In this document: positions 15,095 to 39,427 of the stretch, piece by piece
How the letters are laid out: every line of letters starts with the position of its first letter
How positions within the stretch are numbered: the stretch's first letter is position 1
Source: Alphaproteobacteria bacterium
GTDB taxonomy: Bacteria; Pseudomonadota; Alphaproteobacteria; Rs-D84
Assembly: GCA_031549365.1 (NCBI GenBank)
Contig: JAVBPX010000005.1
Span: 1-64,000 of the forward strand
Length of the DNA stretch: 64,000 nucleotides
Reading direction: 5' to 3'
Made by a program: the position numbers and the translations under genes
The notes under the pieces: model-generated
The model's database searches: none
Seen by the model: only the letters and a program-made list of their open reading frames with translations
What the model was told of the DNA's origin: nothing

Positions 15095-15138
15095 CATTCC
15101 TCATTTTTTGCTTTGCAAAAAAGCTCGGGAAAAAATGT

Positions 15139-15166
15139 AAAAAACCAGGCAATTGCCTGGTTTTTT
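15139..15166 (+). terminator. rpoC intrinsic terminator
   Basis: AAAAAACCAGGC-AATT-GCCTGGTTTTTT. Confidence 0.85.
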
Positions 15167-15171
15167 ACAAT

Positions 15172-15288
15172 TGTCATCTCGGAGAAGTGACGCGGAACAA
15201 TACGTCCGGGATCCAGTCTTATAAATTTTTCACTTATGCGGCACATTATTGTATTTGTAGTCATCCTGAACTCTGTAAGAAGATCCAG
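15172..15288 (+). repeat. Two decayed GTCAT...GATCCAG REP-like elements
   Basis: TGTCATCTCGG...CCGGGATCCAG (15172-15216) and GTCATCCTGAAC...GATCCAG (15260-15288). Confidence 0.55.
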
Positions 15289-16652: not shown

Positions 16653-16672
16653 TTCTTTGCTAATTTCAATTA

Positions 16673-16714
16673 TGTTAAAACCAGAATAATTAAAAATTAT
16701 TTCCGGTTTTAATG
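16673..16714 (+). repeat. 44-bp-type palindromic repeat, copy 1
   Basis: TGTTAAAACC-AG-AATAATT-AAA-AATTATT-TCC-GGTTTTAATG. Confidence 0.8.
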
Positions 16715-16776
16715 CCAACAATAATCGGTTGTATTAATCTTTGTTAATTACACCTAAAATTTATTAACTGAATTAT

Positions 16777-17442
16777 TTACTTTTTCTTTTTATTCTGGAT
16801 ATCTGAAACAGCTGGACAATATTCTATCAATGGGCAAATATCACATTTCGGTCGTAACGCTGAACAGGTATAGCGTCCATGCAAAACCATTACATGGTTT
16901 ACAATTCCATGATATTTTTTTGGAATTATTTGCATTAATTCCGCTTCAACTTTATCCGGGGTATTTGCCGCGTCCGACACCCAACCATAACGATGAGCGT
17001 TACGAAACACGTGCGTATCAACACCAACCGTTGGTGCGCCATGTAACACATTCATTATAACGTTGGCTGTTTTATTACCAATTCCGGGCAATGCCACCAA
17101 TTCGGATTTTGTGCCCGGTAATGTACCATCATATTCATCAACCAAACGGCGCGATAATGCAATTATGTTTTTCGCCTTGTTGTTAAAAAACGAAATTACA
17201 CGAATATATTTTTTTAAACCCTCTTCACCCAATTTCAACATTTTTTCTGGGCTATCCACAATTTTAAATAATTCTGGCGTTACTTCGTTAACCTTTTTGT
17301 CTGTTGCTTGGGCCGATAAAATCACCGCGACCGCAAATGTAAAATCATTTACTGAATATAATTCAGACTTTAATTCCATGGGCAAAGTACGCGGCAAAAT
17401 ATCAAAATAAATATTAATAAAATCGCGCTGTTTTTTATTCAT
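16777..17442 (-). CDS. nth: Endonuclease III
   Basis: ILSAQATD, HhH LPGIGNKTAN, VDTHVFR, Fe-S motif C-x6-C-x2-C-x5-C. Confidence 0.97.
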   Translation of the reverse strand: MNKKQRDFINIYFDILPRTLPMELKSELYSVNDFTFAVAVILSAQATDKKVNEVTPELFKIVDSPEKMLKLGEEGLKKYIRVISFFNNKAKNIIALSRRLVDEYDGTLPGTKSELVALPGIGNKTANVIMNVLHGAPTVGVDTHVFRNAHRYGWVSDAANTPDKVEAELMQIIPKKYHGIVNHVMVLHGRYTCSALRPKCDICPLIEYCPAVSDIQNKKKK

Positions 17443-19267
17443 CGTGCCCGGCCTTGATCATTCGCAATAAAACCATTAATGCCGCCGGCGTCATACCAGA
17501 AATTCGCGCTGCTGACGCCATGTTTTCAGGCCGTGTTTTATTTAATTTTTCAATCAATTCATTCGTTAAACCCGGCATTTTGTCGTATTTTATATGCAAT
17601 GGTATTTTCAATTCCAAATCCCGTCGATACGAATTTATATCATCCATTTGGCGTTTGATATATCCAGAATAAACAACATCGGTAATCGCCGAATCAATTG
17701 CGCGTTCTGAATAATTTTGCATGAAAGATTCACGAATTTCCGGAATATGTTCATCGGATATTTTTATCCAATCGGACAATGATTTTTTGCCAGTATCATC
17801 CCGGCGAATTTTTGTATTATTTAATGCGTTTTTAATTTCATTTATTTCAGATTTGTGGCGTTCAAAATATTCCCGTCGAGCATTCGAACACATTCCCAGT
17901 TCAATTGCCAATGGCGTTAATCGCAATGTTGCGTTGTCGGAACGTACAGTTAATCTGTATTCGGAACGCGCAGTAAACATGCGATACGGCTCATCAACAC
18001 CCAATGTTGTAATATCATCAATCAATACACCAATATATGAATTTGTTCGATCCAAAACTAATGGCGCCACACCCAATGCATAGGCGGCGGCATTTGCGCC
18101 GGCCACGATACCTTGGGCTGCGGCCTCTTCGTATCCCGATGTGCCATTAATTTGTCCGGCAAAAAATAATCCGTTTATATCCTTGGCCTCTAACGTTTTT
18201 TTTAATACCCGCGCATCAATCGCATCATATTCAATTGCATATCCGTATTGTGAGATTTCACAATTTTCCAATCCAGGGATTGACCGAATCCATTTATCTT
18301 GAACATCCGTACCAAACGAAGTCGAAATTCCATTTGGGTAAATTAAATCTGAATTTATACCCTCGGGTTCCAAAAATACATGATGAGTATTGTGATGGGG
18401 GAATCTCATTACTTTGTCCTCTAACGAGGGGCAATAACGAACACCAACACCTGTTATTTCGCCATTATACATTGGTGCAGATTTTATATTTTCACGAATT
18501 ATTTCATGCGTTGTTTCATTTGTATGCGTTAAATGACAAACCATTTGTGGCAACATTTTACATTTGCTAGGCAACATTGAAAATTGTGGAACTGGGACAT
18601 CGCCCGACTGAATACTGCATACAGAAAAATCAATTGAACCCTGTTTAATACGTGCTGGCGTACCGGTTTTTAAACGCATTAATGAAAATCCAGCGCGCGT
18701 TAAAATATTCGATATAAATTTATCGTTTGATTGCGGTTTCCCAAAATCATCCAGCCGCCCAGATTCGATTGTTTTGTTGCCTTGGTAAATTAATCCCCTG
18801 GTGAAAGTACCGGTTGTTATAACAATTGATTTTGAAAAATATTTATCACCATTTGAACAAGCAATCAATTTTATATCCGAATTTAAATCAATATCAATAA
18901 CATCTGAAAATACAAAGTCTATACTTTCGTATTCCGATAACATTTTTTTAATTATTTTGTGATATTCATTTCGATCAATTTGGGCCCGAACTGCACGAAC
19001 GGCCATACCATGCGACGCATTTAATGTTCGAAACTGAATGCCCGCACAATCCGCGGCAACACCCATAATTCCGTCCAATGCATCAATTTCGGCCACCAAT
19101 TGCGATTTACCAACTCCGCCAATACTGGGATTACAGGACATTGCCCCAATATCTGATTCTGATTTAGTAATAACCAATGTTTTGGCACCACGGCGACATG
19201 ACGCGGCGGCGGCCTCGGCCCCGGCGTGTCCACAACCAATAATGATGACATCATACGTTTTTTTCAT
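17435..19267 (-). CDS. mnmG: tRNA U34 carboxymethylaminomethyl modification enzyme MnmG
   Basis: GCGHAG FAD motif, MSCNPSIGG, RYCPSLEDK, GQINGTSGYEEAAAQG. The likely start is MKKTYD. Confidence 0.97.
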   Translation of the reverse strand: MKKTYDVIIIGCGHAGAEAAAASCRRGAKTLVITKSESDIGAMSCNPSIGGVGKSQLVAEIDALDGIMGVAADCAGIQFRTLNASHGMAVRAVRAQIDRNEYHKIIKKMLSEYESIDFVFSDVIDIDLNSDIKLIACSNGDKYFSKSIVITTGTFTRGLIYQGNKTIESGRLDDFGKPQSNDKFISNILTRAGFSLMRLKTGTPARIKQGSIDFSVCSIQSGDVPVPQFSMLPSKCKMLPQMVCHLTHTNETTHEIIRENIKSAPMYNGEITGVGVRYCPSLEDKVMRFPHHNTHHVFLEPEGINSDLIYPNGISTSFGTDVQDKWIRSIPGLENCEISQYGYAIEYDAIDARVLKKTLEAKDINGLFFAGQINGTSGYEEAAAQGIVAGANAAAYALGVAPLVLDRTNSYIGVLIDDITTLGVDEPYRMFTARSEYRLTVRSDNATLRLTPLAIELGMCSNARREYFERHKSEINEIKNALNNTKIRRDDTGKKSLSDWIKISDEHIPEIRESFMQNYSERAIDSAITDVVYSGYIKRQMDDINSYRRDLELKIPLHIKYDKMPGLTNELIEKLNKTRPENMASAARISGMTPAALMVLLRMIKAGHDE

Positions 19268-19358
19268 AGGTTTAATTTTATCATTCCAATCAGTGATTTC
19301 AACTTGAAAATCAAAAAAATCGCAAATATAATGGATACACTTTAACAAAGGGATAAAT

Positions 19359-22300
19359 ATGAATAAAAAATACAACGCGACTACCGCCAAAGCAGACTTT
19401 CCAAATTTAGAACAATCCGTATTAAAAATGTGGTCGGATCGCGGAACTTTCAAAAAAACGTTGAAACAAACTGAAAATGGCCAACCTTTCAGCTTCTATG
19501 ACGGGCCCCCATTTGCAAATAATACCCCGCATTTGGGCCATTTGTCGGTCAGTGCGATGAAAGATATGGTTGCCCGCTTTCAAACAATGAACGGCAAACA
19601 TGTTGTTCGCGAATTGGGTTGGGATTGCCATGGATTGCCCGCAGAATTGAGCGTTGAAAAACAATTCAAAAAACCGGCTTTGGACTATGTTCGCGAAAAC
19701 GGCATTGCTGACTTTTGTGAAAAATGTAGTTTGGATGTTACAAAATACGCAGGCATGTGGGTTGAATATATCGATCGTTTGGGCCGTTGGGTTGATACAG
19801 ACAATGGCACAGGATACCGCACCATGGATAAAAATTTCATGGAATCTGTAATCTGGACGATCAAGGAATTATACAAAAAAGATTTAATTTTCCAAGACGT
19901 TCGCATTAATCCATTATCTTGGAAATTGGGAACTGTGTTATCCAATTTCGAAGCAAACCAAGATTATCGGGATGTTACAGATGATGCAATCACTGTTGCT
20001 TTGGACTTATCGAATGGCATGCGCGCTTTGGTTTGGACAACAACACCGTGGACATTGCCTGCGAATTCTGCGTTGGCCGTTAATCCAAATTTAAATTATG
20101 CCGTTTATCACGATGTGGATGGAAATGATTATGTTTTGGTTGAAACACGTGTCAAAGCATATGAAAAACAATTGGTAAATGCGACATTTGTTAAAACAAT
20201 TCCTGGTTCTGAATTGGTTGGTTTAACATATACTCCTCTATTCCCATATTATTTGGACCATGAAAAGAGGGACCACTTATTTACCATTCTGGGCGGTGAT
20301 TTTGTAACCGATTCTGACGGCACGGGGATTGTTCACATTGCGCCCGCATTTGGCGAGGATGACTTTCAAATCGCACGTAACCATAACGCGGCTTTCCCAG
20401 TGATTTGCAATGTTGATGATAATGGAAATTTCACAGCAGACGTATTGGATTGGGCGAATAAAAACATTTTTGAATCGCAACCTGAAATCATGTCAAAATT
20501 ACGTGAAATGGGGCGCTTGGTCAAAAAGGAATCATACACCCATTCATATCCATATTGTGCACGTGCTGGCGAAAAATTAATTTACAAGGCAACAAACAGT
20601 TTTTACGTTGATGTTCCAAAAATTCGGGAACAACTAATCGCAAATAATAAAAAAGTTAATTGGATAACTGGCGGCGGCCGTTTTGAAAAATGGATCGAAG
20701 GTGCTCGCGCTTGGTCGATTTCGCGCAACCGTTATTTCGGTGTTCCGATTCCTGTTTGGGTTTCCGACAATCCACAATATCCACGTATGGATGTTTATGG
20801 ATCGATTGCTGAAATTGAAAATGATTTTGATGTTAAATTGAATGATTTACACCGACCTTCTCTGGATCCATTAACTCGTCCAAATCCCGATGATCCAACG
20901 GGATCATCCACAATGCGTCGTGTAACAGATGTTTTGGATTGCTGGTTTGAATCTGGTTCAATGCCATGGGCATCGTTACATTATCCATTTGAAAATGTGG
21001 ATCGTTTCGAAAAAACATTCCCTGCTGATTATATTATCGAGGGGATGGATCAAACACGTGGATGGTTTTATACTTTGATGGTGTTGGCGACAGCCTTGTT
21101 TGATAAACCAGCGTTTATGACGGTTACTGCAAATGGTTTAACATTGGATGAAAACAAGAAAAAAATGTCCAAGAGCTTGGGCAATTATTCAGATCCATCC
21201 GAAATGTTTAAAAAATATGGCGCTGATTCAATTCGTTTATACGTATTGGGATCCCCATTATTCAAGGGCGAACCAATCAGTATAGACAAGGCCGGATCCG
21301 TATTCGCAAAAACATTACAATCAACATTAATTCCATTGTGGAATGCATACCATTTGTTCACATTGTATGCGAATGCTGACAATGTTGTGGCAAATGAAAA
21401 TTATAATTCATCGGATGTTTTGGATCGATACATTTTAAATAAAATGAATGATTTGATTAATGATGTTACATCGTCATTATCCGCATATTCAACCGATACT
21501 GCGGTTCGTCAAATCACAACTTTTATCGATGTGTTAAACAATTGGTATATTCGTCGTTCCCGCGAACGTTTCTGGAATGGGGATCAATCCGCATTTGATA
21601 CGTTATACACAGTATTAATTACATTGTGTAAATTGATGGCACCATTAACACCATTTATTACCGAATCTATTTATACAAATTTAACTGGTTTGGAATCGGT
21701 TCATTTGTGCAAATGGCCAGTCGCAAATAAAATGAGTGAATTTGACCATAAATTGGTAATGGATATGGATCGTGTTCAAATGATTTCAGCCACGGCGAAA
21801 GCATTGCGTGAACAATTTGGATTACGCAATCGTCTGCCATTATCGTCAATGACGGTTGCCGGATGGAATGCGCCGGAATATACTGAAATTTTGGCGGATG
21901 AATTGAATGTTAAAAATGTGATTTTCACAGAAACATATGAAACCGTTGCCGATCCATTTTTGTATTTGATTACTCCGAAAATTGGTGCCAGACTGGGCGC
22001 ACATTTGTCCAAAATTATTCCGGCATCGAAATCGGGTGATTATAAATTGGTTGGCGATAAATTGGAAATTGCTGGACAAACATTGAATTCGGATGAATTT
22101 GAAATTCGTTTAAATGTTAAACCAAATGTATCGGGCGCAACATTGCCTGATAATACCGCAGTTGTTATATTGGATACATTTGTAACTCCGGAATTGGCCG
22201 CCGAAGGAATGGCCCGCGATACAATTCGTTTTATCCAGGATACTCGCAAAGAAATGAATTTAAATGTATCCGATCGAATTTCGATTGTTTATGAAACCGA

Positions 22301-22445
22301 CGACGAATTATCAAATGCTATTAATACGCATTTAGATATGATTTCTGAAAACGTGTTGGCAACCGCCATTTCGGCCGGAAAATCCGACGCATTTACAACC
22401 GAAATCGAAGGTCATAAATTATCAATTTCGATTACGAAAAATTGA
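19359..22445 (+). CDS. ileS: Isoleucine-tRNA ligase, type 2
   Basis: GPPFAN..PHLGH, WTTTPWTLP, WSISRNRYFG, DCWFESGSMP, KMSKS; long C-terminus without a Zn finger. Confidence 0.97.
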   Translation: MNKKYNATTAKADFPNLEQSVLKMWSDRGTFKKTLKQTENGQPFSFYDGPPFANNTPHLGHLSVSAMKDMVARFQTMNGKHVVRELGWDCHGLPAELSVEKQFKKPALDYVRENGIADFCEKCSLDVTKYAGMWVEYIDRLGRWVDTDNGTGYRTMDKNFMESVIWTIKELYKKDLIFQDVRINPLSWKLGTVLSNFEANQDYRDVTDDAITVALDLSNGMRALVWTTTPWTLPANSALAVNPNLNYAVYHDVDGNDYVLVETRVKAYEKQLVNATFVKTIPGSELVGLTYTPLFPYYLDHEKRDHLFTILGGDFVTDSDGTGIVHIAPAFGEDDFQIARNHNAAFPVICNVDDNGNFTADVLDWANKNIFESQPEIMSKLREMGRLVKKESYTHSYPYCARAGEKLIYKATNSFYVDVPKIREQLIANNKKVNWITGGGRFEKWIEGARAWSISRNRYFGVPIPVWVSDNPQYPRMDVYGSIAEIENDFDVKLNDLHRPSLDPLTRPNPDDPTGSSTMRRVTDVLDCWFESGSMPWASLHYPFENVDRFEKTFPADYIIEGMDQTRGWFYTLMVLATALFDKPAFMTVTANGLTLDENKKKMSKSLGNYSDPSEMFKKYGADSIRLYVLGSPLFKGEPISIDKAGSVFAKTLQSTLIPLWNAYHLFTLYANADNVVANENYNSSDVLDRYILNKMNDLINDVTSSLSAYSTDTAVRQITTFIDVLNNWYIRRSRERFWNGDQSAFDTLYTVLITLCKLMAPLTPFITESIYTNLTGLESVHLCKWPVANKMSEFDHKLVMDMDRVQMISATAKALREQFGLRNRLPLSSMTVAGWNAPEYTEILADELNVKNVIFTETYETVADPFLYLITPKIGARLGAHLSKIIPASKSGDYKLVGDKLEIAGQTLNSDEFEIRLNVKPNVSGATLPDNTAVVILDTFVTPELAAEGMARDTIRFIQDTRKEMNLNVSDRISIVYETDDELSNAINTHLDMISENVLATAISAGKSDAFTTEIEGHKLSISITKN

Positions 22446-22457
22446 TTTGTTTGTGCA

Positions 22458-22501
22458 TTGTTAATTCGAGAATAAAATTTCGTTATTTCCCGAATTAACA
22501 A
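22458..22501 (+). repeat. 44-bp palindromic repeat, copy 2
   Basis: TTGTTAATTCG-AG-AATAA...TTATT-TCC-CGAATTAACAA. Confidence 0.85.
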
Positions 22502-22577
22502 TGGAACTATAATTTTTGTTTTATAAAAATGAGAAAAATACTCTTATGAAATAAAATCCTCAATTTGGGGATTTTAT

Positions 22578-23192
22578 TTATGCTGATTTAATCTTTCGTT
22601 TATTCAAAATCAAATTTATATTATTTTGGATACTTTCGACTGAATCGCCGGCATTTACGTAATTAACTCGACCCACTTTTTCAAAATGTTTTATAACCGG
22701 TCTGGTTTTTTCATTGTATTCAAAAAACCGCTGATTAATAATGTCATTGTTGATATCATCCAATCGCCCCGAATTTTTTCCGCGTGAAATTATTCGCTGT
22801 TGGCTCATTTCATCGGAAATCGCAAAATAAAATACTATCAATTGATTATGAAAAACGTTTCTCTGACTGACTTTTTTAAATAATCTTGTTAATAATTTCG
22901 CCTGATCCATTGTACGTGGTGCGCCGTCCATAATAACACCGTTTTTGCAATCTGGTTGATTTACACGCGCAATTATTAATTTTGCAATAATTTCATCCGG
23001 CACCAATTTTCCCATTGCCATATATATTTTTGCAATGCGTCCCAAATTTGTTCCCAACGCAATATTTTCACGCAATAATTCACCCACATCAATATGCGGA
23101 TAATTGATATGTTTTGATAACAAATTTGCCTGGGTTCCTTTGCCCGAACCGGGCGCACCCATAAATAAAATTAAATTTTTCGAACTTTCCAT
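22578..23192 (-). CDS. adk: Adenylate kinase, short-LID type
   Basis: GAPGSGKGTQA, GELLR, GKLVPD, MDGAPRT, R.DD. Confidence 0.95.
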   Translation of the reverse strand: MESSKNLILFMGAPGSGKGTQANLLSKHINYPHIDVGELLRENIALGTNLGRIAKIYMAMGKLVPDEIIAKLIIARVNQPDCKNGVIMDGAPRTMDQAKLLTRLFKKVSQRNVFHNQLIVFYFAISDEMSQQRIISRGKNSGRLDDINNDIINQRFFEYNEKTRPVIKHFEKVGRVNYVNAGDSVESIQNNINLILNKRKIKSA

Positions 23193-23269
23193 TTTACAAT
23201 TTTCCAACTTAAAATGGGGGCATACCGAAGTTAATCGGATTGCCCCCCTGATCAAATTTAACAACTGGA

Positions 23270-24553
23270 TTATTTTGCGTCGTGCGACTTAAATAATTCG
23301 GTTGCTTCAACTTTTTTCTCTTTGGTTTTAACCAATTCCAACATTTTATCCAATACTTTTTGTTCATACAAAATTCCACGCAACATTGATACTGCTTGGC
23401 GATTTTTGGAATAGTAATCAAACACAGCTTCGTGTTGGCCTGGATATTTCATCGCTTCTTGGAAAATTGCTTGTTGGATTTCATCCTGAGTTACTTCAAT
23501 TTTGTTTTGATTTCCCCATTCTGCCAAAATTAACCCCAATTTAACACGACGTTCCGCTTCTTTTTTCGCAGATTTTTCATCGAATTTTTCGCCATCGTGT
23601 TCCGATTGATGCTTTGCCATTTCAACTTCTTGGGATACCAATGTTTCTGGCACATCCATTTTTACTTTGTCTGACAATGTTTCCAACAATTCTTCTTTCA
23701 TGTCGCGAATTGATGCCAATTTATATTGTTCTGCCAAAATTTTGCGAATGTGTTCCATCAAAGCATCCAATGATTCTTGGCCCACTTCTTTGGCCAAGGC
23801 ATCGTTGATTTCTGGAATTACATTTTTGCGCAATCCGTGCAGTACGATTTCGAATTTAACTTGTTTGCCCGCCAATTCTTTGGAATGATAATCGGATGGA
23901 AAAGTTACATTAATATCAAATTTTCCACGTTTTTTTCCAACGATTGCTTCTTCGAATCCTGGGATAAAACTATTTGATCCCAATTCCAGCATGTGATGTT
24001 TGGCTTCGCCGCCTTCGAATGGCGTGTCGCCCAAAAATCCCTTGAAATCGATGTCGGCAACATGGCCAATTTCAGCCGAAATATCTTCTTCGATTTTTTC
24101 AGAAACACGACGTGATTTCGCCAAATTGATTAATCCGCGTTGAACTTCTTCTTCGTCAATGTCGGCAACTTTTTTGGTAAGCGTTATTTTTTCCAATTCA
24201 ATTTTTGGCAATGGTGGCAAAATATCAAATTCCAGAGTGTATTCGACGTCTTTACCCTCTTCCATTTTTTCAACTTTGGCATCCGGAGATCCCGCCAAAC
24301 GAATTTTATGCTCGGTTGCATATGCATCCATATCGGCATTCATCATATTGTTGATTGTTTCATGCATAACTGATGAGCCGTATTTTTGGCGCAATACATC
24401 CAACGGAATATGTCCAGGGCGAAAACCAGCAATTTTAGCTGTTTTGCCATGTTCCATTAAAATTTTATCTGATTCTGCTTGGATGTCGGCAACAGACAAA
24501 ACACCATGAACAACATAATGCAAGTCTTTGATTTTATCTTTTTTGATGGCCAT
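23270..24553 (-). CDS. tig: Trigger factor
   Basis: GFRPGHIP ribosome-binding motif and FKBP domain FEGG...FIPGFEE. Confidence 0.97.
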   Translation of the reverse strand: MAIKKDKIKDLHYVVHGVLSVADIQAESDKILMEHGKTAKIAGFRPGHIPLDVLRQKYGSSVMHETINNMMNADMDAYATEHKIRLAGSPDAKVEKMEEGKDVEYTLEFDILPPLPKIELEKITLTKKVADIDEEEVQRGLINLAKSRRVSEKIEEDISAEIGHVADIDFKGFLGDTPFEGGEAKHHMLELGSNSFIPGFEEAIVGKKRGKFDINVTFPSDYHSKELAGKQVKFEIVLHGLRKNVIPEINDALAKEVGQESLDALMEHIRKILAEQYKLASIRDMKEELLETLSDKVKMDVPETLVSQEVEMAKHQSEHDGEKFDEKSAKKEAERRVKLGLILAEWGNQNKIEVTQDEIQQAIFQEAMKYPGQHEAVFDYYSKNRQAVSMLRGILYEQKVLDKMLELVKTKEKKVEATELFKSHDAK

Positions 24554-24653
24554 GATTTTATCCTTAAAATTTTATATATTATATAAATTGCAAAATCCCC
24601 GTTGGCAATATTGCGTCCATGAATGAACACTCTGCCAATGGGGATAATTGTTT

Positions 24654-25088
24654 TTATCGTTTCGAGAACTGAGTCGATCTACGCGCTTTTCTGAATCCGT
24701 AATGTTTACGTTCAACAGTACGTGAATCGCGGGTCAAGAAACCTTCTTTCTTTAATGATGTGCGCAACTCTGGTTCAATCAAAGTCAAAGCTTTGGAAAT
24801 ACCGTGTTTAACGGCACCGGCTTGACCTGATAATCCACCGCCAACAACGGTTGCGAATACATCATATTGTCCTTCGCGTTTTGCAATGCCAAATGGTTGG
24901 CGCAAAATCATTTGCAATACTGGACGTTTAAAATATTCGTTCATATCACGATCGTTTACAACAATGTTTCCTTTGCCTGGGGCCAAGAATACGCGAGCAA
25001 CTGAATCTTTGCGTTTTCCGGTTGCATAAACTTTCATTTTGTTTGTTGTTACTTTTGCAACAGCAACTGTTTCTTTTTTGGCAACCAT
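24654..25088 (-). CDS. rpsI: 30S ribosomal protein S9
   Basis: [17 protein letters not shown]-terminal QFSKR. Confidence 0.99.
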
Positions 25089-25558
25089 TATGCGCTCCTT
25101 TTATTTTTAACGTTCAAGCTTGCGAAATCAACAACAACTGGCTTTTGCGCAGTGTGTTTGTGTTCAGCGCCGGCGTAAATATGCAATTTTGTTAAACGCA
25201 AATCGGATAAAGCTGTTGAATTACGGCGTCCCATCATGCGTTTCACAGCATTGAATACCAATTCAGTTGGTTTTTCAGCGCGCATTTGACCCAATGTACG
25301 GGATTTCAAACCGCCAGTCCAACCAGAATGCCAATGAAACTCGTCTTTGTCTGCTTTGTTACCAGTCAATGCGATTTTATCAGCATTAATGATAACAACG
25401 TGATCGCCACCATCCATGTGTGGCGTGTATGTTGCTTTGTTTTTACCGCGTAAAACGTTTGCAGCGTATGCTGCCAAACGTCCCAACACGATATCCGTGG
25501 CGTCAATCAAAATCCATTGTGGATTTAAATCGCCCTTTTTCAGATTCGGTGTACCCAT
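25088..25558 (-). CDS. rplM: 50S ribosomal protein L13
   Basis: [20 protein letters not shown]. Confidence 0.99.
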
Positions 25559-25585
25559 TGTTTTTTCCTCTTGGTTAACGGGTGT

Positions 25586-25613
25586 ATTTTATGAATAATT
25601 TTACACAAGTCAA
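25586..25613 (-). promoter_or_regulatory. Sigma70 promoter of rplM-rpsI
   Basis: TTGACT-16 bp-TAAAAT on the minus strand. Confidence 0.65.
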
Positions 25614-25693
25614 GAAAAAACGCAAAAATCCGCACAAATTTCGTATATGGTATTTTAATACCGCATTTAAAACCAACAACTTTATGCTGCTTA

Positions 25694-25729
25694 TGTCATT
25701 GCTTGGGGTCGCGACTCTGCGGCAATGAC
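25694..25729 (+). repeat. GTCATTGC...GCAATGAC REP-like palindrome
   Basis: 8-bp terminal inverted repeat with an inner GGGGTC/GACTCT stem; related to 27140 and 55036. Confidence 0.55.
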
Positions 25730-25770
25730 TGCAATTGATGTTATATACCGCTAAACCCTTTCTCGCACCT

Positions 25771-25813
25771 AGTTAATTTCAGGAAAATTTCAAATTTTCT
25801 CTGGAATTAACAA
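25771..25813 (+). repeat. 44-bp-type palindromic repeat, copy 3
   Basis: AGTTAATTTC-AG-GAAAATT-TCA-AATTTTC-TCT-GGAATTAACAA. Confidence 0.85.
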
Positions 25814-25884
25814 TATCAACCATAATTATTGAATTAAAATATAATTTTTGTTATCATTGTCGGGTAATCCAAGGGGAATAAATT

Positions 25885-26022
25885 ATGAAAAAATTATTAA
25901 TATTATTTGCAATCGTGCTGCCTTTGGCCGCATGCTGTAATTGTTCGCGCGAACCAATCGTTGCTGAAAATGCTGCGTTAATAATACCGCCACATGTTGA
26001 ACAGACGCCGGACGCCAATTAA
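25885..26022 (+). CDS. Small lipoprotein, 45 aa, possibly DUF3035-like (missing from the ORF track)
   Basis: AAGGGG RBS; MKKLLILFAIVLPLAAC with lipobox LAAC; ALIIPP motif. Confidence 0.7.
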   Translation: MKKLLILFAIVLPLAACCNCSREPIVAENAALIIPPHVEQTPDAN

Positions 26023-26079
26023 ACTTGCGCGCGCACCAAAATTGTGGTATAATTAGCCGTATAAGTGAAGGAGATCACC

Positions 26080-26427
26080 ATGAAATTTACAAATAAATAC
26101 TTAAAACCAATGGCTTTGGCCGCATTTGTAATGGCTGCAACCGTATCAACCGGGTACGCCGATGTGCCAGATGTTCAGGTTGGCAAATTAAGCGCCGAAA
26201 TGTTCAAAATTTTCAAAATTCTGCGCAGCTTGGCCTTTATTGGCGCTGCATTCATCCTGGCTGGCAAGGCATGGGGCTGGATCAAAGCGGGTAAAGTTGA
26301 ATGGGAAAACGAAATGAAAGGATCTGGTATGGCCATGATCGTTGGATTCTTTGTTCTGTTTTCAATCGGAATGATTATTGGCCTGTTTATCCCCGAGGGC
26401 GGAAACGTTGTATCAGCTTGGAAATAA
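26080..26427 (+). CDS. VirB2/TrbC pilin-like membrane protein
   Basis: AAGGAG RBS, signal peptide ending GYA, two hydrophobic helices separated by a short charged loop. Has an upstream TATAAT and a terminator at about 26445-26468. Confidence 0.55.
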   Translation: MKFTNKYLKPMALAAFVMAATVSTGYADVPDVQVGKLSAEMFKIFKILRSLAFIGAAFILAGKAWGWIKAGKVEWENEMKGSGMAMIVGFFVLFSIGMIIGLFIPEGGNVVSAWK

Positions 26428-26488
26428 ATGGCACGCAATTCTTAAAAACCCCGATAATCGGGGTTTTTATTTATAAAGGGGATAACAT

Positions 26489-27043
26489 ATGACATTATTA
26501 CAATTATTGGATATTATAAATATTGTTTGTTGGGTGTTTTTGGCTGTTTTTTTGATTACAACTGTTGTGCCCAGTACAATTTTTAAAATGACCCCACCAT
26601 ATCCATCGCAACACGTTATGCGTCAAGCCCTGATTGACGCCATTAAAAAATATTATCCCAATGCAAAAACATTAATTGATATTGGCTCTGGCTGGGGTGG
26701 ATTGGCACGAATGGTTGGAAAACAAAACCCAAATATGCGTATTGTTGGTTTGGAATATTTACCATTACCGTGGGCGTGTTCCAAAATTGTACGTTTTTTT
26801 ATGGGGCCCCGTAATGTTCGATTTATTTACGCGAATGCGTTCAAATATATCCCTAAACATCCGTCTGATATCGGCGTTTCATACTTGTTGAAAAAATCAA
26901 TGCCTCGCGTTAATGAAATGTCCAAATATTTCCGAGTTTTAATTGTTTTGGATTTTCCGATACCGGATCGAGAACCAACACATGTCATTGATTTACATCA
27001 TGACGAATTGGGAAAACACCGGATTTTTGTTTATGAAAATTAA
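26489..27043 (+). CDS. Membrane-anchored class I SAM-dependent methyltransferase
   Basis: N-terminal TM helix, LIDIGSGWG motif I, GLE motif II. Confidence 0.85.
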   Translation: MTLLQLLDIINIVCWVFLAVFLITTVVPSTIFKMTPPYPSQHVMRQALIDAIKKYYPNAKTLIDIGSGWGGLARMVGKQNPNMRIVGLEYLPLPWACSKIVRFFMGPRNVRFIYANAFKYIPKHPSDIGVSYLLKKSMPRVNEMSKYFRVLIVLDFPIPDREPTHVIDLHHDELGKHRIFVYEN

Positions 27044-27053
27044 TAGCGAGTTA

Positions 27054-27097
27054 TTGTTAATTTCAGAATAATTAAAAACTATTTCCGAAATCAACAA
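27054..27097 (+). repeat. 44-bp palindromic repeat, copy 4
   Basis: TTGTTAATTTC-AG-AATAATT-AAA-AACTATT-TCC-GAAATCAACAA. Confidence 0.85.
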
Positions 27098-27230
27098 GAT
27101 TCGCAATAACAAAAAAATGATATTTTGCTGGGGCGTTTGTGTCATCGAGAGTCAATTTATTGACACGGCAATCTTTGCAATTTGATTTAATTAGTGATAT
27201 AATGTTCATGTATAACCACAGGAATTTAAT

Positions 27231-27359
27231 ATGCCATTAAAACGTAAAAACAACACAAAAAAATACTTAATTATCGGCGTTTTGATAATTTTGGTCGTAT
27301 TGATGATTGTATCAATGCCGGCACCCGATCATGTAACCGAAGTTGTGTTGCATCAATAG
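27231..27359 (+). CDS. 42-aa single-pass membrane protein (missing from the ORF track)
   Basis: Upstream TGATATAAT and AGGA RBS; MPLKRKNNTKKYLIIGVLIILVVLMIVSMPAP... (basic N-terminus plus TM helix). Confidence 0.7.
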   Translation: MPLKRKNNTKKYLIIGVLIILVVLMIVSMPAPDHVTEVVLHQ

Positions 27360-27368
27360 ATATTAATG

Positions 27369-27412
27369 TTGTTAATTTCAGGAAAATTGAAAATTTTCTC
27401 CGAAATTAACAA
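27369..27412 (+). repeat. 44-bp palindromic repeat, copy 5
   Basis: TTGTTAATTTC-AG-GAAAATT-GAA-AATTTTC-TCC-GAAATTAACAA. Confidence 0.9.
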
Positions 27413-27457
27413 TGATAAAAACAATGGGCAATAAATATAAAATTATTGAATTTATAA

Positions 27458-28339
27458 ATGAATGCGATTGAATTGTTTTTGGAAATGTTGTCGGCAGAAC
27501 GTGGTCGCGCAAAATTAACATTGGAATCATACGAATCCGATTTAACCGCAATTTATAATGAATTGGGCGATTTGACCCAGCTATCCACACACGATATTCA
27601 AAATTATTTCATGAAATTATTAAATGAAAATATGGCCGCAACTTCCATCGCACGCAAGGCTTCGGCATTGCGCCAATTTTATAAATTTATGAATTTGGAA
27701 AAATGGATGGATAAAAATCCAATGGCCGGCGTTGAACTACCAAAACGCCAAAAATCATTACCAAAATATTTGGATGAATCCGACATTACATCATTAATAA
27801 ATTCAGCCGAAGACATTAAAAACACCAAACGTTTGCGCGCCATGATCGAATTATTATACGCATCGGGATTGCGGGTTTCCGAACTGGTATCCTTGCCCAT
27901 GTCTGCTGTATTAAATGATAAATTATTAATACACGGCAAGGGATCCAAAGAACGCATGGTCCCAATTCACAACACCGCGCGTCGCGCATTGGATGAATAT
28001 TTTGTTGTGCGCCCTGCATTTATTCCAAATGGACGCAAAGCATCCCCATTTGTATTCCCCAGTGCATCCGAATCCGGGCATTTGACCCGTGATGGTTTTT
28101 ATAAAATTTTAAAAAAGTGCGCGGTACTGTCCGGCATTGACCCATTGCGCGTATCGCCCCACGTTTTACGACATTCTTTTGCTTCGCATTTATTGGCCCA
28201 TGGTGCAAATTTGCGCGCAATTCAAACTATGCTCGGGCACGAAGATATTGCAACAACGCAAATTTATACCCATGTATTGCCGCAACATTTGGTTGATGCC
28301 GTTCAATCGCATCATCCGTTATCTGGGAAAAAATTATGA
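27458..28339 (+). CDS. xerD: Tyrosine recombinase XerD
   Basis: LYASGLRVSELV, GKGSKER, SPHVLRHSFASHLL..GA.LRAIQTMLGH.DIATTQIYTHV: all catalytic residues are present. Confidence 0.92.
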   Translation: MNAIELFLEMLSAERGRAKLTLESYESDLTAIYNELGDLTQLSTHDIQNYFMKLLNENMAATSIARKASALRQFYKFMNLEKWMDKNPMAGVELPKRQKSLPKYLDESDITSLINSAEDIKNTKRLRAMIELLYASGLRVSELVSLPMSAVLNDKLLIHGKGSKERMVPIHNTARRALDEYFVVRPAFIPNGRKASPFVFPSASESGHLTRDGFYKILKKCAVLSGIDPLRVSPHVLRHSFASHLLAHGANLRAIQTMLGHEDIATTQIYTHVLPQHLVDAVQSHHPLSGKKL

Positions 28340-28824
28340 AAGTACAAAAATGCGATTTTCCAAATTGTACAAAATTGGGCAACTGTCGCGCGCCCAAGGA
28401 TCGCAAATTAAACGAATATTATATGTTTTGTTCAAAACATGCCGCCGAATATAATAAAAATTGGAATTATTATTCGGGGATGAGCGAATCTGAAATAAAC
28501 GCAGATTGGGAACGACAAACATTTGGTCCACATCCATTCGAATCATTTCATGATGATCATCATTTGGATTTTTTACGCGCTTATCTATCCGATTCGCGTG
28601 CTGGGACAAAAAAAATATTATCCCCAAACGCCGCACAAAACCGTGCATTAAAAACACTGGAACTAAATTGGCCAACTACAATGGTTGACATTCAAAAACA
28701 ATACCGAAAACTGGCAAAAAAATATCATCCTGATACTTCTGCTTCTGCCAATTCTCAAAAAATATTCCAAGAGATTGCGGCCGCATACGACACATTATCA
28801 AAATGGTTAAAACCAGTAAAATAG
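28336..28824 (+). CDS. J-domain protein with N-terminal Cys/His motif
   Basis: C..P.C...G..RAPK...FC..H...YNK.WNYY.GMS and C-terminal KKYHPD. Confidence 0.9.
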   Translation: MKVQKCDFPNCTKLGNCRAPKDRKLNEYYMFCSKHAAEYNKNWNYYSGMSESEINADWERQTFGPHPFESFHDDHHLDFLRAYLSDSRAGTKKILSPNAAQNRALKTLELNWPTTMVDIQKQYRKLAKKYHPDTSASANSQKIFQEIAAAYDTLSKWLKPVK

Positions 28825-28861
28825 CCTTGTTTTTTTTCGTTATATTTCCTAGAATATTCAC

Positions 28862-29680
28862 ATGAGAAAAATTATTCCATTTTTATTATCCGCCATTATT
28901 GCAATGCCCGCCATTGCGTTGGAACCGTTTTTTTTGGACGAAATGGAAGATACTACATCAGATCAACCATCCGCCACTATTATTGACGAGCCAACATTTG
29001 TTGATCAATTTTCGGATGATCAGTTGCCAGATATAATGTATTTGGATGACGGTCAAGATTTTGCAAACGTTCGCATGTTTGATATTGCCGGAATATTTTT
29101 GGGCATGCAATTCGAAGATGTACAAACATTATTTTATAAAACCCGGGGTTTGTATGCGCCCGTGGATAAAAATTCAATCAAATATTCAATACCAAAAGAA
29201 TGGCGATATAATTTGGATTATGAATGTCGCCAGGGCGGAATTTACATCCCGGCCGAGGTTGAACGTTGTATCCAATCGTCCGCCAAAAAACGTGGATTTT
29301 TGTATCCCGCAGAAATGCATTTGGTTCGTAAAAAAACCGGCGAAAACATATATGTTTATTTCACATCAAATTTAACGAATAATAATGTGTGGAAAATTGT
29401 ATACCAAAACGATGTGGACGAGGTTGAGGGGTTGGACGAAAAATTTGAATACCAACGGGAAAAGAAAATATTAACATTTTGGCAATCAGTATTGGATAAA
29501 TATGGCGCGCCAAATTCTGGAACTGCCGCTTGGATTTCATCCGACAACCCGTTCGATCCGATGATGGAGGCCGCATACGGCGAATTAATACTCCAAGATC
29601 GTTCAATGCATGCCAATGATATTAACGAAAATACGCTGGATTCACGGGCCAGATTCCAATCCAAACCTTATGCTTTCTGA
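28862..29680 (+). CDS. Secreted hypothetical protein with acidic N-terminus
   Basis: Signal peptide ending AIA; 272 aa. Confidence 0.8.
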   Translation: MRKIIPFLLSAIIAMPAIALEPFFLDEMEDTTSDQPSATIIDEPTFVDQFSDDQLPDIMYLDDGQDFANVRMFDIAGIFLGMQFEDVQTLFYKTRGLYAPVDKNSIKYSIPKEWRYNLDYECRQGGIYIPAEVERCIQSSAKKRGFLYPAEMHLVRKKTGENIYVYFTSNLTNNNVWKIVYQNDVDEVEGLDEKFEYQREKKILTFWQSVLDKYGAPNSGTAAWISSDNPFDPMMEAAYGELILQDRSMHANDINENTLDSRARFQSKPYAF

Positions 29681-29682
29681 TA

Positions 29683-29726
29683 ATGTTAATTTCAGGAAAA
29701 TTAAAAATTTACTACGAAATTAACAA
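29683..29726 (+). repeat. 44-bp palindromic repeat, copy 6
   Basis: ATGTTAATTTC-AG-GAAAATT-AAA-AATTTAC-TAC-GAAATTAACAA. Confidence 0.85.
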
Positions 29727-29792
29727 ATGTAACAAAAAAACAAACACATTTATATTTTAGTTGTCATTGATGACAATTACAGCTATACAAAA

Positions 29793-30116
29793 CTATTGTT
29801 TGAATACTATTTTTTTGATTGTTTCCGAACCATAATAATTATTAATTTTTTCCAACAATTCGCGTTGCCGAAACGATAAAACCATGGCGGATGCAGGCGT
29901 TGTTAATTTTAAAGTTAATGTTCGCCCATCTTTGTTCGATGATAATTTATCAACAACCATTTGTAATGCCAGATCGGGTCCAACAATTGTTTCCCAATGA
30001 TTTTTTAAATCGAAATCACCAATATTACCGCCCAATTCCCGAACAACATGATTTAATCGTGACGCCAGTGTCATTGGCCGGGATTTACGTTGATCAAAAT
30101 CCGGCTTTTTTGCCAT
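29793..30116 (-). CDS. dciA: DciA/DUF721-family helicase loader
   Basis: W..IVG..LA and ELLEKIN.YYG...IKKI pattern. Confidence 0.75.
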   Translation of the reverse strand: MAKKPDFDQRKSRPMTLASRLNHVVRELGGNIGDFDLKNHWETIVGPDLALQMVVDKLSSNKDGRTLTLKLTTPASAMVLSFRQRELLEKINNYYGSETIKKIVFKQ

Positions 30117-31057
30117 TATTCGTCCCCCTCGATCAAAGCGACCGGGCCATCGGTTACATATAAACTCTTTTTATTCTCGGCGTCATCCAAAACCAATTTT
30201 TGTAATTTTTCGAATGCGCGTTCTTCAATTTGACGAACACGTTCGCGTGAAATATTATATTTTTCGGATAATTGTTCCAACGTTTGAACAGGATCGGAAA
30301 GTCGTCTGGATTTTAAAATATCCTGTTCCCGATCAGTCAATTTTTTCATATTATTTTTTAATAACTCTGCCCCCAACGTAGCCAATTCTTTTTGGTCCAA
30401 ACGTTCATCAATTGTAATATTATCGCCCGCCAAATTATCAATCATTTCGGACGCATCATCGCCGGACCCACGTGGCGAATTTAATGACACATCGCGACCC
30501 ATCCGAGATGCCATGCGTTCAACATCGGATTCAGACACATTTAAATAATTTGCGATTTGTCCAACAGATTCATTCGACAAACGATTATCCATAATTCCCA
30601 ATTCACGTTTTGCCCGTGCCAGGTTGAAAAACAACCTTTTTTGATTACTGCTGCTGCCGATTTTAACAATCGACCAATTGTTTAAAATCGTTTCGTAAAT
30701 CGCAGCACGAATCCACCATAACGCATACGTTGTTAAACGAAATCCGCGTTCGGGGTCGAATTTTTTAACGGCCTGCATTAATCCCATGTTGCCCTCGGCA
30801 ATTAGATCGGACATTGGAATACCGTAATTTTTGAATTCATACGCAACGGACACAACCAATCGCAAATGCGAAGTAACCAAACGTTCGGCCGCCATTGTGT
30901 CATGATCCCGCTGCCAACGGGTTGCCATTGTGTATTCTTCCTCGGCTGACAATATGGGGAAGCGCTGAATATCACGAATATATTGTTCCAAACCAACTTC
31001 GTCGCTGACACCGCGAACGGCCATCAACGATTGATTCGGATTGTTCTTTTTGCTCAT
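30116..31057 (-). CDS. rpoH: RNA polymerase sigma-32 factor
   Basis: LVTSHLRLVV, DLIAEGNMGLMQAVKKFDP, RpoH box QKRLFFNL, SRERVRQIE. Confidence 0.93.
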   Translation of the reverse strand: MSKKNNPNQSLMAVRGVSDEVGLEQYIRDIQRFPILSAEEEYTMATRWQRDHDTMAAERLVTSHLRLVVSVAYEFKNYGIPMSDLIAEGNMGLMQAVKKFDPERGFRLTTYALWWIRAAIYETILNNWSIVKIGSSSNQKRLFFNLARAKRELGIMDNRLSNESVGQIANYLNVSESDVERMASRMGRDVSLNSPRGSGDDASEMIDNLAGDNITIDERLDQKELATLGAELLKNNMKKLTDREQDILKSRRLSDPVQTLEQLSEKYNISRERVRQIEERAFEKLQKLVLDDAENKKSLYVTDGPVALIEGDE

Positions 31058-31110
31058 AGATATATTATAGCACAAAACGCCAAATTTTCAATTGGTATAA
31101 AGTCTTAAAG

Positions 31111-31227
31111 TTAATTAACGGGATAAGTCCGGGGGAAATTCTTGCCACTTGGATGATCTGGGGCCGATTTAACACCGCACCCAACCACAATAAACGCCAA
31201 TAAAATCAGTAATAATGCCTTTTTCAT
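31111..31227 (-). CDS. Small lipoprotein, LptM/YifL-like (38 aa)
   Basis: MKKALLLILLAFIVVG-CGVKSAPDHP: lipobox plus CG.K...P motif. Confidence 0.7.
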   Translation of the reverse strand: MKKALLLILLAFIVVGCGVKSAPDHPSGKNFPRTYPVN

Positions 31228-31250
31228 GTATATATATTGCATTACTTTTA

Positions 31251-31325
31251 TTGTTAATTCAAGAAAAATCCAAGATTTCACTCTCGTTAAAACCAGAATA
31301 ATTGAAATTATTTTTGGTTTTAACA
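31251..31325 (+). repeat. Palindromic repeat copy 7 (31285-31325) preceded by a truncated copy
   Basis: TTGTTAATTCAAG... half copy, then GTTAAAACC-AG-AATAATT-GA-AATTATT-TTT-GGTTTTAAC. Confidence 0.8.
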
Positions 31326-31500
31326 GCCGTGCAATTATAAATATCTTGAAATTTCGATAAAATTCTTTATTATGTCGGTACATTGCCCGGATGGTGAGGC
31401 ATAAAATGAATGTTAATAATATTCATTTTTGCGTAATAGAAACAACAAATTTTTAATTTGCATGTTTCGTTGCGAACCTTTTGGACAAAAAAGTAAATCG

Positions 31501-31587
31501 GCCCGGATGGCGGAATTGGTAGACGCGCTAGTTTCAGGTACTAGTGAACGCAAGTTCATGGAGGTTCGAGTCCTCTTTCGGGCACCA
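31501..31587 (+). tRNA. trnL: tRNA-Leu (CAG)
   Basis: 87 nt, long variable arm, anticodon loop TTCAGGT, CCA end, terminator at 31597-31620. Confidence 0.96.
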
Positions 31588-31627
31588 TCAATAGTAAAAA
31601 CCGGCAATCTGCCGGTTTTTTATTTAC

Positions 31628-32170
31628 TTATTTTTTAGCAATATCCGAACGCATTTTTATAATTTTGTCCGGATTTGTTACAGTGCCGCTGCCGGGTGCG
31701 CCACGTTTGATTTTATCAACGTATTCCATGCCGGATGTAACATTACCCCAAACGGTATATTGCCCATCCAAAAATATTGCATCATCAAAACAGATGAAAA
31801 ATTGGCTGTCCCCGCTGTTTACATCGTTTGAACGCGCCATTGAAACAGTTCCGCGGACGTGTGGTTCGCGTGAAAATTCGGCCTTTAACTTTTTTCCGGA
31901 TCCGCCCATGCCGGTTCCCGTTGGATCACCGGTTTGGGCCATAAATCCATCAATCACACGGTGAAAAACAATGCCATCATAAAATCCAGAATCCGCCAAT
32001 TCAACAATACGTTTTACGTGTTCCGGTGCCAAATCCGGGCGTAATTTAATTTCAACAGTTCCGTCTTTTAATTCCAGGTATAACATTTTTGCCTCCGTCG
32101 TTTTTGCAAATGCATTTGTTGATATAAATATTGCGACAATTAATGCCAATATGTATTTTAAATATTTCAT
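31628..32170 (-). CDS. ppiA: Periplasmic cyclophilin-type peptidyl-prolyl isomerase
   Basis: FYDGIVFHRVIDGFMAQTGDP, SQFFI, signal peptide. Confidence 0.93.
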   Translation of the reverse strand: MKYLKYILALIVAIFISTNAFAKTTEAKMLYLELKDGTVEIKLRPDLAPEHVKRIVELADSGFYDGIVFHRVIDGFMAQTGDPTGTGMGGSGKKLKAEFSREPHVRGTVSMARSNDVNSGDSQFFICFDDAIFLDGQYTVWGNVTSGMEYVDKIKRGAPGSGTVTNPDKIIKMRSDIAKK

Positions 32171-32246
32171 TTTATCCCCCCGTTTAATCCATGCCAACAC
32201 TGTACAATTATTTATATAATTGGTCAATTAAATTAATAATACATTT

Positions 32247-32290
32247 ATGTTAATTCCAGAATAATTAAAAATTATTTCCGGAATTAACAA
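32247..32290 (+). repeat. 44-bp palindromic repeat, copy 8
   Basis: ATGTTAATTCC-AG-AATAATT-AAA-AATTATT-TCC-GGAATTAACAA. Confidence 0.9.
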
Positions 32291-32398
32291 TATAAAAAAC
32301 AGATAAAAATACAAATTAAATATGTCACAACCATTAAAAAACCGGCCAAATGACCGGTTATCCCTCAGGGTCAAAACCCCATGGCAATCATTGCAATA

Positions 32399-39296: not shown

Positions 39297-39313
39297 TTAA
39301 TAACAACCCTCAA

Positions 39314-39348
39314 TAAAAAACCGACTATTTACTAATAGTCGGTTTTTT
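39314..39348. terminator. Bidirectional terminator between valS and pyk
   Basis: AAAAAACCGACTATT-TACT-AATAGTCGGTTTTTT. Confidence 0.85.
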
Positions 39349-39427
39349 ATTTTTTATCTAAATTGACTCTGATTTCATTGCCGCAAGTTTGACATTTTAT
39401 CCAATGTTGTCAATCATGACTTTTGCC

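Follow-up and report, generated by a model that had tools for sequence, protein, structure and literature searches.

Introduction

Short palindromic repeats are common in bacterial chromosomes, and for few families have spread and function been settled. The stretch considered here comprises the first 64,000 nucleotides (nt) of the 92,162-base contig JAVBPX010000005.1 (forward strand; assembly GCA_031549365.1), from an uncultured alphaproteobacterium of the GTDB lineage Rs-D84, and is referred to as the window. It carries eight full copies of an imperfect palindrome of about 44 nt (44–46 nt), all intergenic, spread over 16672–32292 and all in + orientation. The question raised by this locus is what has fixed the polarity of the repeats: transcription, replication, or local copying.

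The copies are a real hairpin family under structural constraint, with a fixed asymmetry and a uniform strand. As to their origin, the answer preferred here is tentative and is given slightly less than an even chance: the family may be a repeat resembling the repetitive extragenic palindromic (REP) sequences, copied locally in one orientation by way of a folded single strand, handled by an enzyme, and retained mainly as hairpins in 3′ untranslated regions (3′-UTRs). If the pattern holds genome-wide, it would let replication, transcription and local copying be told apart cleanly as causes of polarity, and could indicate a hairpin-reading enzyme not yet tied to repeats that lack the GTAG and CGTC tags; if it fails, this is one more species-specific REP-like family.

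Eight Copies on One Strand

Both strands of the 64 kb were searched, with all filters disabled, using a covariance model (R1) built from the eight copies. R1 scores 58–73 bits at the copies on the + strand and 29–41 bits at the same loci on the − strand. The model matches its training copies by construction; the informative outcomes are the strand gap, which amounts to 17–34 bits, and the absence of other matches. Elsewhere in the 64 kb the best match reaches 16.3 bits (E 0.56), and no copy was found in 1–16.6 or 32.3–64 kb. A consensus pattern in the ambiguity code of the International Union of Pure and Applied Chemistry gives eight matches in the window, all on the + strand, and none in 100 shuffles. 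Model and pattern together confirm each of the eight copies listed in an earlier, sequence-only reading of the window, and its remark that no clear copy follows after 32.3 kb is borne out by the low score of the best non-copy match.

The copies are AT-rich, with a GC content of 0.17–0.27. No sequence is conserved in their flanks, which carry no information, and the hairpin by itself is thus the unit that repeats; neither target-site duplications nor a longer unit are supported.

A Hairpin with Unequal Strands

Each hairpin consists of a stem of 11–13 bp, a 1-nt bulge, a second stem of 7 bp and a 3-nt loop. When the copies are laid over this two-stem structure, 93.0% of the cells are paired, as against 81.9 ± 1.9% in shuffles, and none of 500 shuffles equals the observed value; control structures slid along the alignment give 32–55%. 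Six pairs are compensated, with both sides changed. Across the two-stem structure and its revised versions the figures are 89–93% pairing and six to eight pairs with compensatory changes. The covariation of the stems that had been noticed by eye is therefore real, and the mid-portions of both stems are constrained only to pair. What is conserved as sequence is the stem foot (TTGTTAA / TTAACAA), the dinucleotide AG and the one-base bulge, with A12, G13 and T31 invariant in all eight copies.

The asymmetry had been described as an invariant AG facing a three-base TCC segment. The invariance of A12 and G13 stands; the unpaired loop does not, since G13 pairs with C32 in six of the eight copies. 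A12 lies opposite C33 in six copies and opposite T in the other two, and T31 is a single bulged base on the + strand (A on the − strand). On the − strand, the pair 14–35, which corresponds to the A·C position of the + strand, is paired in every copy, six times as G·T and twice as A–T. The 'AG versus TCC loop' is thus better read as a continuous stem with a 1-nt bulge and one position that is A·C on the + strand and G·T on the − strand. Bulge and A·C/G·T position make the two strands unequal, and a reader of the folded single strand could tell the orientation of the element.

Folding calculations reflect this inequality. As DNA, the − strand is the more stable in six of eight copies; its z scores range from −3.8 to −7.3 in all eight, while those of the + strand range from −4.5 to −6.8 in seven, the copy at 27054 reaching −1.04. 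For RNA folds, stability favours the − strand in five copies and the + strand in two, with one tie.

Common descent, rather than convergence, accounts for the likeness of the copies, because the foot and the AG are invariant, three of the eight copies occupy sites where no terminator would be placed, and remnants lie beside full copies.

Position Relative to Genes

Placement statistics drew on the 39 intergenic regions that measure 46 nt or more and together comprise 6,636 nt, in which the segment 16.6–32.4 kb holds 23% of the possible starts; the underlying gene list includes three small open reading frames (ORFs) picked by eye (25885–26022, 27231–27359 and 31111–31228). When eight copies were placed at random in intergenic DNA, their span was at most 15.6 kb in 0.16% of 200,000 trials (P 0.0016). 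Such tight clustering and the uniform orientation are also what would be expected if the repeats were a neutral by-product of local template switching, or of gene conversion among neighbouring intergenic sequences, that copied a palindrome in direct orientation with neither a dedicated enzyme nor a function involved, and the copies with an AAAACC-type stem share a partial left arm on their 5′ side together with short flank matches. Such an origin is improbable: the compensatory changes, and the AG and bulge that remain invariant across subtypes, indicate selection on the fold or on recognition, which drift alone would not produce.

Five of the eight copies start 2–20 nt past the stop codon of a + gene, namely mnmE, ileS, ORF 26489–27043, a 42-aa ORF and ORF 28862–29680. 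All five are sense to that gene, and no copy abuts the stop of a − gene. If 21 nt after a + stop is taken as the limit, a fraction of 0.107 would be expected there, and five of eight were found (P 5.9e-4). When the gene ends in the cluster that have room for a copy are counted, five of six + ends and none of five − ends have a stop-adjacent one (Fisher P 0.013). The remaining three copies (25771, 31284 and 32247) lie upstream of promoters, and no convincing unannotated + ORF ends just 5′ of any of them. The stem sequence TTAACA was considered as a −35 box and rejected by eye; its spacing to ATAAT-like motifs is too short (7 nt at the second copy), and these flank motifs are not conserved among the copies.

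The sequence-only reading had held that polarity follows the chromosome irrespective of transcription. The single strand throughout agrees with this, but five copies sit in sense orientation behind + stops and none at − stops, so that polarity is not simply independent of transcription. Conversely, transcription alone does not suffice either, since none of the five − ends has a stop-adjacent copy, no copy is on the − strand, and the three promoter-side copies are also +. Tracking of the chromosome alone would explain the uniform strand, but not the tie to + stop codons. The distribution fits best with short-range deposition in one orientation, after which copies persist mostly where the preceding gene lies on the matching strand.

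Relation to Terminators

In stem-loop form, and in their place directly after a stop, the repeats resemble intrinsic (Rho-independent) terminators. They differ in composition: intrinsic terminators have a GC-rich stem and a T-tract, whereas the repeats combine their GC content of 0.17–0.27 with only one to three T among the 10 nt that follow it (+ strand rows), in agreement with their earlier description as AT-rich elements that lack a U-tract and are not ordinary terminators. The terminators used in this window are GC-cored hairpins between A and T runs, as seen after rpoC, valS and tRNA-Val, at 49817, 51581 and 51825, and at the end of mreB. The list of terminator-like sites from the window scan contains no family copy; overall, the scan gave 22 sites against 21.8 expected in shuffles, and only its strongest entries were used. 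The repeats were therefore rejected as canonical terminators, being AT-rich and free of a T-tract in a window that has the usual kind elsewhere. The stop-adjacent copies hold the slot that ordinary terminators occupy at other genes, without the hallmarks of a terminator.

The ordinary terminators are in themselves a second and quite different class of hairpin in the same genome. Those at 15133–15172, 31596–31620, 32340–32359, 39312–39351, 49817–49858, 51581–51620 and 51825–51872 are alike, with an A-run, a short GC core that is often CCGG or CCNGG, and a T-run; many are bidirectional.

Occupation of this slot is an argument for an element that acts in the transcript, with its orientation set by the preceding gene: a stabiliser against 3′ exonucleases, a pause or Rho-linked stop, or the site of a protein that reads the bulge. 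The sense orientation of the five stop-adjacent copies agrees with this, as does PMC3733652, where REPs are placed for the most part downstream of coding sequences and their transcription is called plausible. Against it, three of the eight copies are not behind a + gene, and that at 32247 has a − gene on either side and is situated past their terminator. No copy, + or −, adjoins the stop at any of the five − gene ends, and none in the window is in − orientation, which an element of the transcript would not lead one to expect; moreover, the fold present in the sense transcripts is the less stable of the two, and the T-tract is missing. An explanation purely at the level of RNA is thus unlikely, if worth keeping in view.

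Direction of Replication

A single orientation in all copies could also be set by the replication fork. GC skew at third codon positions (GC3) and in intergenic DNA is weakly negative on the + strand, at about −0.07, in all four quarters of the window, and no skew switch was seen within the 64 kb. By the usual rule, negative + skew makes the − strand the lagging-strand template. This would set the nusG–rplKAJL–rpoBC genes, which are on the + strand, head-on to the fork; such an arrangement is unusual, and the direction of replication is therefore uncertain here.

These data bear on a replication-polar single-strand element, that is, a hairpin formed on one template of the fork, whose orientation would follow the replichore and flip at ori and ter. 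Such a hairpin would be acted on by an HUH enzyme or would mark the chromosome in a polar manner. All eight copies lie on one strand whatever the direction of their neighbours, and the empty − gene ends together with the missing − copies are not predicted by pure tracking of transcription. The − strand, which folds better as DNA in six of eight copies and pairs at position 14–35 in all of them, would be the lagging-strand template by the skew, and it is to this template that the strand polarity of IS200/IS605 elements is tied, according to PMC6006769; their hairpins act there. The head-on position of rpoBC and rplKAJL weakens the assignment, replication polarity by itself offers no reason for five copies at + stops, and no HUH gene is present in the window. 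Like the transcript-level explanation, this one is judged unlikely.

A Possible Route of Spread

The reading preferred here is that of a REP-like repeat copied locally and kept mainly in 3′-UTRs. Copies would arise by short-range copying that preserves orientation and passes through a folded, single-stranded intermediate. A structure-specific enzyme, with its gene outside the window, would process this intermediate, and Y1 HUH transposases of the RAYT or IS200/IS605 type provide the best precedent for it. Copies would then survive at sites where they do no harm or are of use, for the most part as hairpins in the transcribed 3′-UTR of the upstream gene. It is by analogy with such precedents that a hairpin read on one strand may be taken to point to an HUH-type enzyme, or to a replication-polar landmark.

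Several observations weigh against this proposal. Only eight copies on one contig are available, one of the stop-adjacent cases concerns a 42-aa ORF without homologue (when this copy is dropped, four of eight remain; P 0.006), and three small ORFs in the gene list behind the statistics were chosen by eye. If the hairpin were useful in mRNA, the + transcripts would be carrying the less stable fold (five of eight copies as RNA, six of eight as DNA). Neither a Y1/HUH gene nor any other transposase gene is found in the 64 kb, where 62 ORFs were scanned with NCBIfam and 33, nearly all of them from the same set, with Pfam; a RAYT gene, which for REPs of the GTAG kind is flanked by copies, is likewise not seen in the window, and the HUH nuclease that the sequence-only reading had proposed to look for does not co-occur in the window. 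The tags of known REPs, GTAG/GTGG (placed 0–2 nt 5′ of the hairpin) and CGTC, occur at none of 16 ends (eight copies, both strands). REPs have at least three G/C among the first four bases of the basal stem, as against one in four in the repeats, whose foot begins TGTT or GTTA. REPs reach high copy numbers and often form inverted doublets, termed REPINs in PMC3116915, whereas the repeats are single units with no inverted pair among the eight. Finally, one strict consensus pattern found no copy in 185,579 species genomes, a collection in which the source genome is seemingly not included.

A more far-reaching proposal is that the repeats are substrates or landmarks of a strand-specific system acting on single-stranded DNA, distinct from REP/RAYT, IS200/IS605 and integrons, and that they occur in local runs oriented by replichore. 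This is considered rather unlikely. If true, the element would be read through its foot, the AG and one flipped-out base, and would represent either a new polar mark on the chromosome or a new pair of enzyme and hairpin in an uncultured alphaproteobacterial lineage.

Individual Copies and Their Remnants

Copy 1 (16672–16717, +) has the AAAACC/GGTTTT variant of the outer stem and scores 63.9 bits with R1 on the + strand and 29.5 on the − strand; it lies 20 nt past the mnmE stop (16652), where mnmE and nth converge. The TTCG/CGAA variant is found in copy 2 (22458–22503, +; 62.7 bits on +, 37.2 on −), which is separated by a 12-nt gap from the ileS stop (22445) and is convergent with adk. No stop codon adjoins copy 3 (25771–25815, +; 59.8 bits on +, 34.0 on −), which is flanked by rplM (−) and, in divergent orientation to it, a predicted small lipoprotein gene (25885–26022, +).

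Copies 4 and 5 lie close together. The former (27054–27099, +; 66.2 bits) follows the stop of a methyltransferase-like ORF (26489–27043, +) after a 10-nt gap, and is the weakest folder on the + strand (z −1.04, compared with −3.81 on the − strand). Copy 5 (27369–27414, +; 70.0 bits) follows the stop of the predicted 42-aa ORF (27231–27359, +) after 9 nt and ends 43 nt before the start of xerD. Copy 6 (29683–29728, +; 63.2 bits), only 2 nt past the stop of a secreted-protein ORF (28862–29680, +), is convergent with dciA.

Copy 7 (31284–31328, +; 58.0 bits) again has the AAAACC/GGTTTT variant, with a loop that is one base shorter; its neighbours, a small lipoprotein ORF (31111–31228, −) and tRNA-Leu (31501, +), are divergent. 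Copy 8 (32247–32292, +; 73.2 bits) is nearest to the consensus; of its two − neighbours, the GDSL-lipase gene ends in a canonical terminator (32359–32340, −) downstream of which the copy lies, and the other is a PPIase gene, with its promoter region downstream of the copy.

Three fragments had been reported in addition to the full copies, and none of them reaches E 10 with R1. Two carry the stem-foot 9-mer, which occurs 16 times against 4.2 expected: eight times in full copies, twice in these remnants and six times elsewhere. The stretch 31251–31283 (+) is a probable remnant. Its outer arm on the left and AAG are preserved, along with a short hairpin inside; copy 7 takes the place of its right arm. 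At 16741–16770, a probable decayed copy whose orientation is indeterminable retains the foot GTTAAT...ATTAAC around a 16-nt spacer and ends a few nt before the nth stop. The third, a left-arm-like stretch at 16657–16671 (+) directly 5′ of copy 1, is weak, having been recognised by eye and without statistical support.

The two AAAACC/GGTTTT copies have similar surroundings (16657–16717 and 31251–31328). In both, a partial left arm of the other subtype sits on the 5′ side, ATTTCA is found a few nt upstream, and GCC occurs within a few nt downstream. A composite unit may have been copied whole at these two places.

Genes of the Window

The window is gene-dense, with a GC content of about 0.38. 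Its genes include nusG–rplKAJL–rpoBC, mnmE, nth, mnmG, ileS, adk, tig, rpsI–rplM and xerD, and further dciA, rpoH, valS, lipid A genes, mreB and pcrA. XerD of the window is 69–72% identical to that of the nearest relatives; those with a name are metagenome-assembled genomes (MAGs) labelled Rickettsiales or Alphaproteobacteria bacterium; the best non-self relative is the one at 72%. A foreign or chimeric origin of the cluster region was rejected, since it has the same tetranucleotide signature as the remaining window (correlation 0.96–0.99).

The ileS product (19359–22445, +) is an isoleucine–tRNA ligase of 1028 aa. In addition to the general ileS model it aligns end to end with the MupA and MupB models, at 629 and 603 bits against a cut-off of 1900, and is of the long IleRS type shared with these models; this does not amount to evidence of resistance. 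The three small ORFs in copy-bearing intergenic regions are 25885–26022 (+), 27231–27359 (+) and 31111–31228 (−). Two have lipoprotein-like signal sequences and one encodes a 42-aa membrane-like peptide; for the 42-aa ORF (27231–27359), a protein database search returns only the query itself. Two further ORFs in the cluster are without a family match: 26065–26427 (+; 120 aa) has a signal-like start and hydrophobic stretches, and 28862–29680 (+; 272 aa) has a signal peptide. Judged by eye, neither has the appearance of a DNA-binding protein.

An integrase-like ORF of 362 aa (48241–49329, +) possesses an arm-binding domain and a central domain, and its catalytic domain is matched only at positions 2–124 of 172 (E 1.8e-5). 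It lies in the part of the window with the lowest GC content (0.34–0.36), a few kb past tRNA-Val (43944), and is probably the remnant of an integrated element. There is no hairpin copy near it; the last copy is 16 kb away, and the speculative link between the repeats and this degenerate integrase is not supported.

Comparison with Site-Specific Recombination Systems

The presence of an intact xerD (27458–28339, by family models) within the cluster suggested a link to Xer recombination, with the repeats as XerD-binding or dif-like sites that mark the terminus in a polar manner or delimit Xer-driven modules. A dif site, as given in PMC2731167, comprises 11 + 6 + 11 bp with a conserved inner TTATG. 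TGTTAA, which is contained in the stem foot of the repeats, also occurs there in two epsilonproteobacterial rows labelled 'classical dif', in the arm on the XerD side. For Alphaproteobacteria, Table 1 of the same source gives arms such as TTATGGAAAAT and TTATGTAAAGT, which are unlike the stem foot. TTATG stands 5′ of the foot in only two of eight copies, and the half-sites of the repeat are about 24 nt apart and face outward. Covariation in the mid-stem would not be allowed in the arm of a recombinase that reads sequence, and in a cluster about 20 genes wide proximity to xerD means little. A loose dif pattern matches 75 times in the window, exactly the 75 expected; a short XerD-arm-like motif has one match in the window, at copy 8. 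No dif-like site stands out in the window. A role of this kind is very improbable, and the connection with XerD that the sequence-only reading called speculative is unsupported.

The sole exact match to the loose dif pattern is a palindrome at about 51907–51934, with arms ending in CATAA / TTATG and a 6-nt centre. It lies within the 3′ end of ORF 51878–52921 (−), which has no family match, and could be either chance or a real site.

Integron attC sites are recombined as a folded single strand, in which extrahelical bases determine the choice of strand, and their arrays have a uniform orientation. The inverse core, ending in AAC, is on the 5′ side and the core, starting with GTT, on the 3′ side, and the cassette array lies beside intI and attI. 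The repeats share with attC the single-strand hairpin with an extrahelical base, the uniform orientation, and GTT and AAC triplets in the outer stem. The order of the two boxes is, however, reversed, since the repeats have GTTAA on their 5′ side and end with TTAAC on the other. In place of cassettes, housekeeping genes on both strands (ileS, adk, tig, rpsI, rplM, xerD and rpoH) lie between the copies, and the window has no integron integrase: XerD scores 117.7 with the integrase family, for which the cut-off is 265. That the repeats are integron-type sites flanking cassettes is contradicted by this gene content; it is the least probable of the explanations, and can hardly be entertained.

Comparison with Repeat Families and Insertion Sequences

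IS200/IS605 elements and their non-autonomous derivatives have subterminal imperfect hairpins that resemble the repeats, and are read on one strand only; their transposase reads an extrahelical base in the hairpin. They differ in that the left and right hairpins are distinct, a fixed target of four or five nucleotides stands 5′ of the left end, and tnpA usually accompanies them, whereas the repeat is one 44-nt hairpin. No conserved flank motif was found at the copies, and no tnpA in the window. Long Rickettsia palindromic elements, of about 100–150 bp and often in frame inside genes, differ from the repeats in size and by the intergenic position of the latter, a comparison made by description only.

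CGTC-tagged REPs occur in the same bacterial class as the repeats and are likewise small intergenic palindromes. Section 6 of PMC3733652 includes RPE-4 and RPE-6 of Rickettsia conorii among the alphaproteobacterial members, and describes an unpaired CGTC, TGTC or CCTC end, stems of 8–9 bp, loops of 4–5 nt and a CCA tail. Most are head-to-head dimers according to the same section, and some families, such as those of Wolbachia and Neisseria, are clustered. By eye, the flanks of the repeats show neither TGTC nor CCTC; stems and loop differ, and dimers are absent.

Searches of collections gave no relative of the family. Rfam yielded only tRNAs at the gathering score and, at E 1 over 16.5–32.5 kb, nothing at the copies. 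A plasmid collection, queried in distant mode with an intergenic sequence containing two copies, gave one chance match of 31 nt outside the hairpins. The strict pattern had two matches among the species genomes, in a Formosa genome and a Campylobacteraceae MAG, one scoring 14.2 bits with R1 (E 0.95) and the other falling below the E 1 threshold; both are chance. Because these were all that 185,579 genomes produced, the repeat is lineage-specific at the stringency of the strict pattern. Literature searches by word found no description of this strand-biased REP-like family or of a Rickettsiales counterpart; as repeat sequences cannot be found by words, this is weak evidence that the family is unpublished. 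The suggestion that the family was undescribed is consistent with the lack of both an Rfam match and the tags of the catalogued REP super-families.

The closest likeness is to the REPs of the RAYT-associated GTAG super-family, which are extragenic imperfect palindromes of 20–60 nt; all eight copies, at 44–46 nt and intergenic, are of this kind. The 'long hairpin' REP in PMC6006769 has a basal stem, a bulge of 1–3 nt, a second stem and a loop of 2–5 nt, and the repeats show the same architecture of two stems joined by a short bulge. Like REPs and REPINs, they keep the pairing of the hairpin among copies and lie mostly downstream of genes. The repeats fit none of the catalogued families tested, and would be best filed as a lineage-specific, untagged, AT-rich, single-unit REP-like hairpin with a built-in strand mark.

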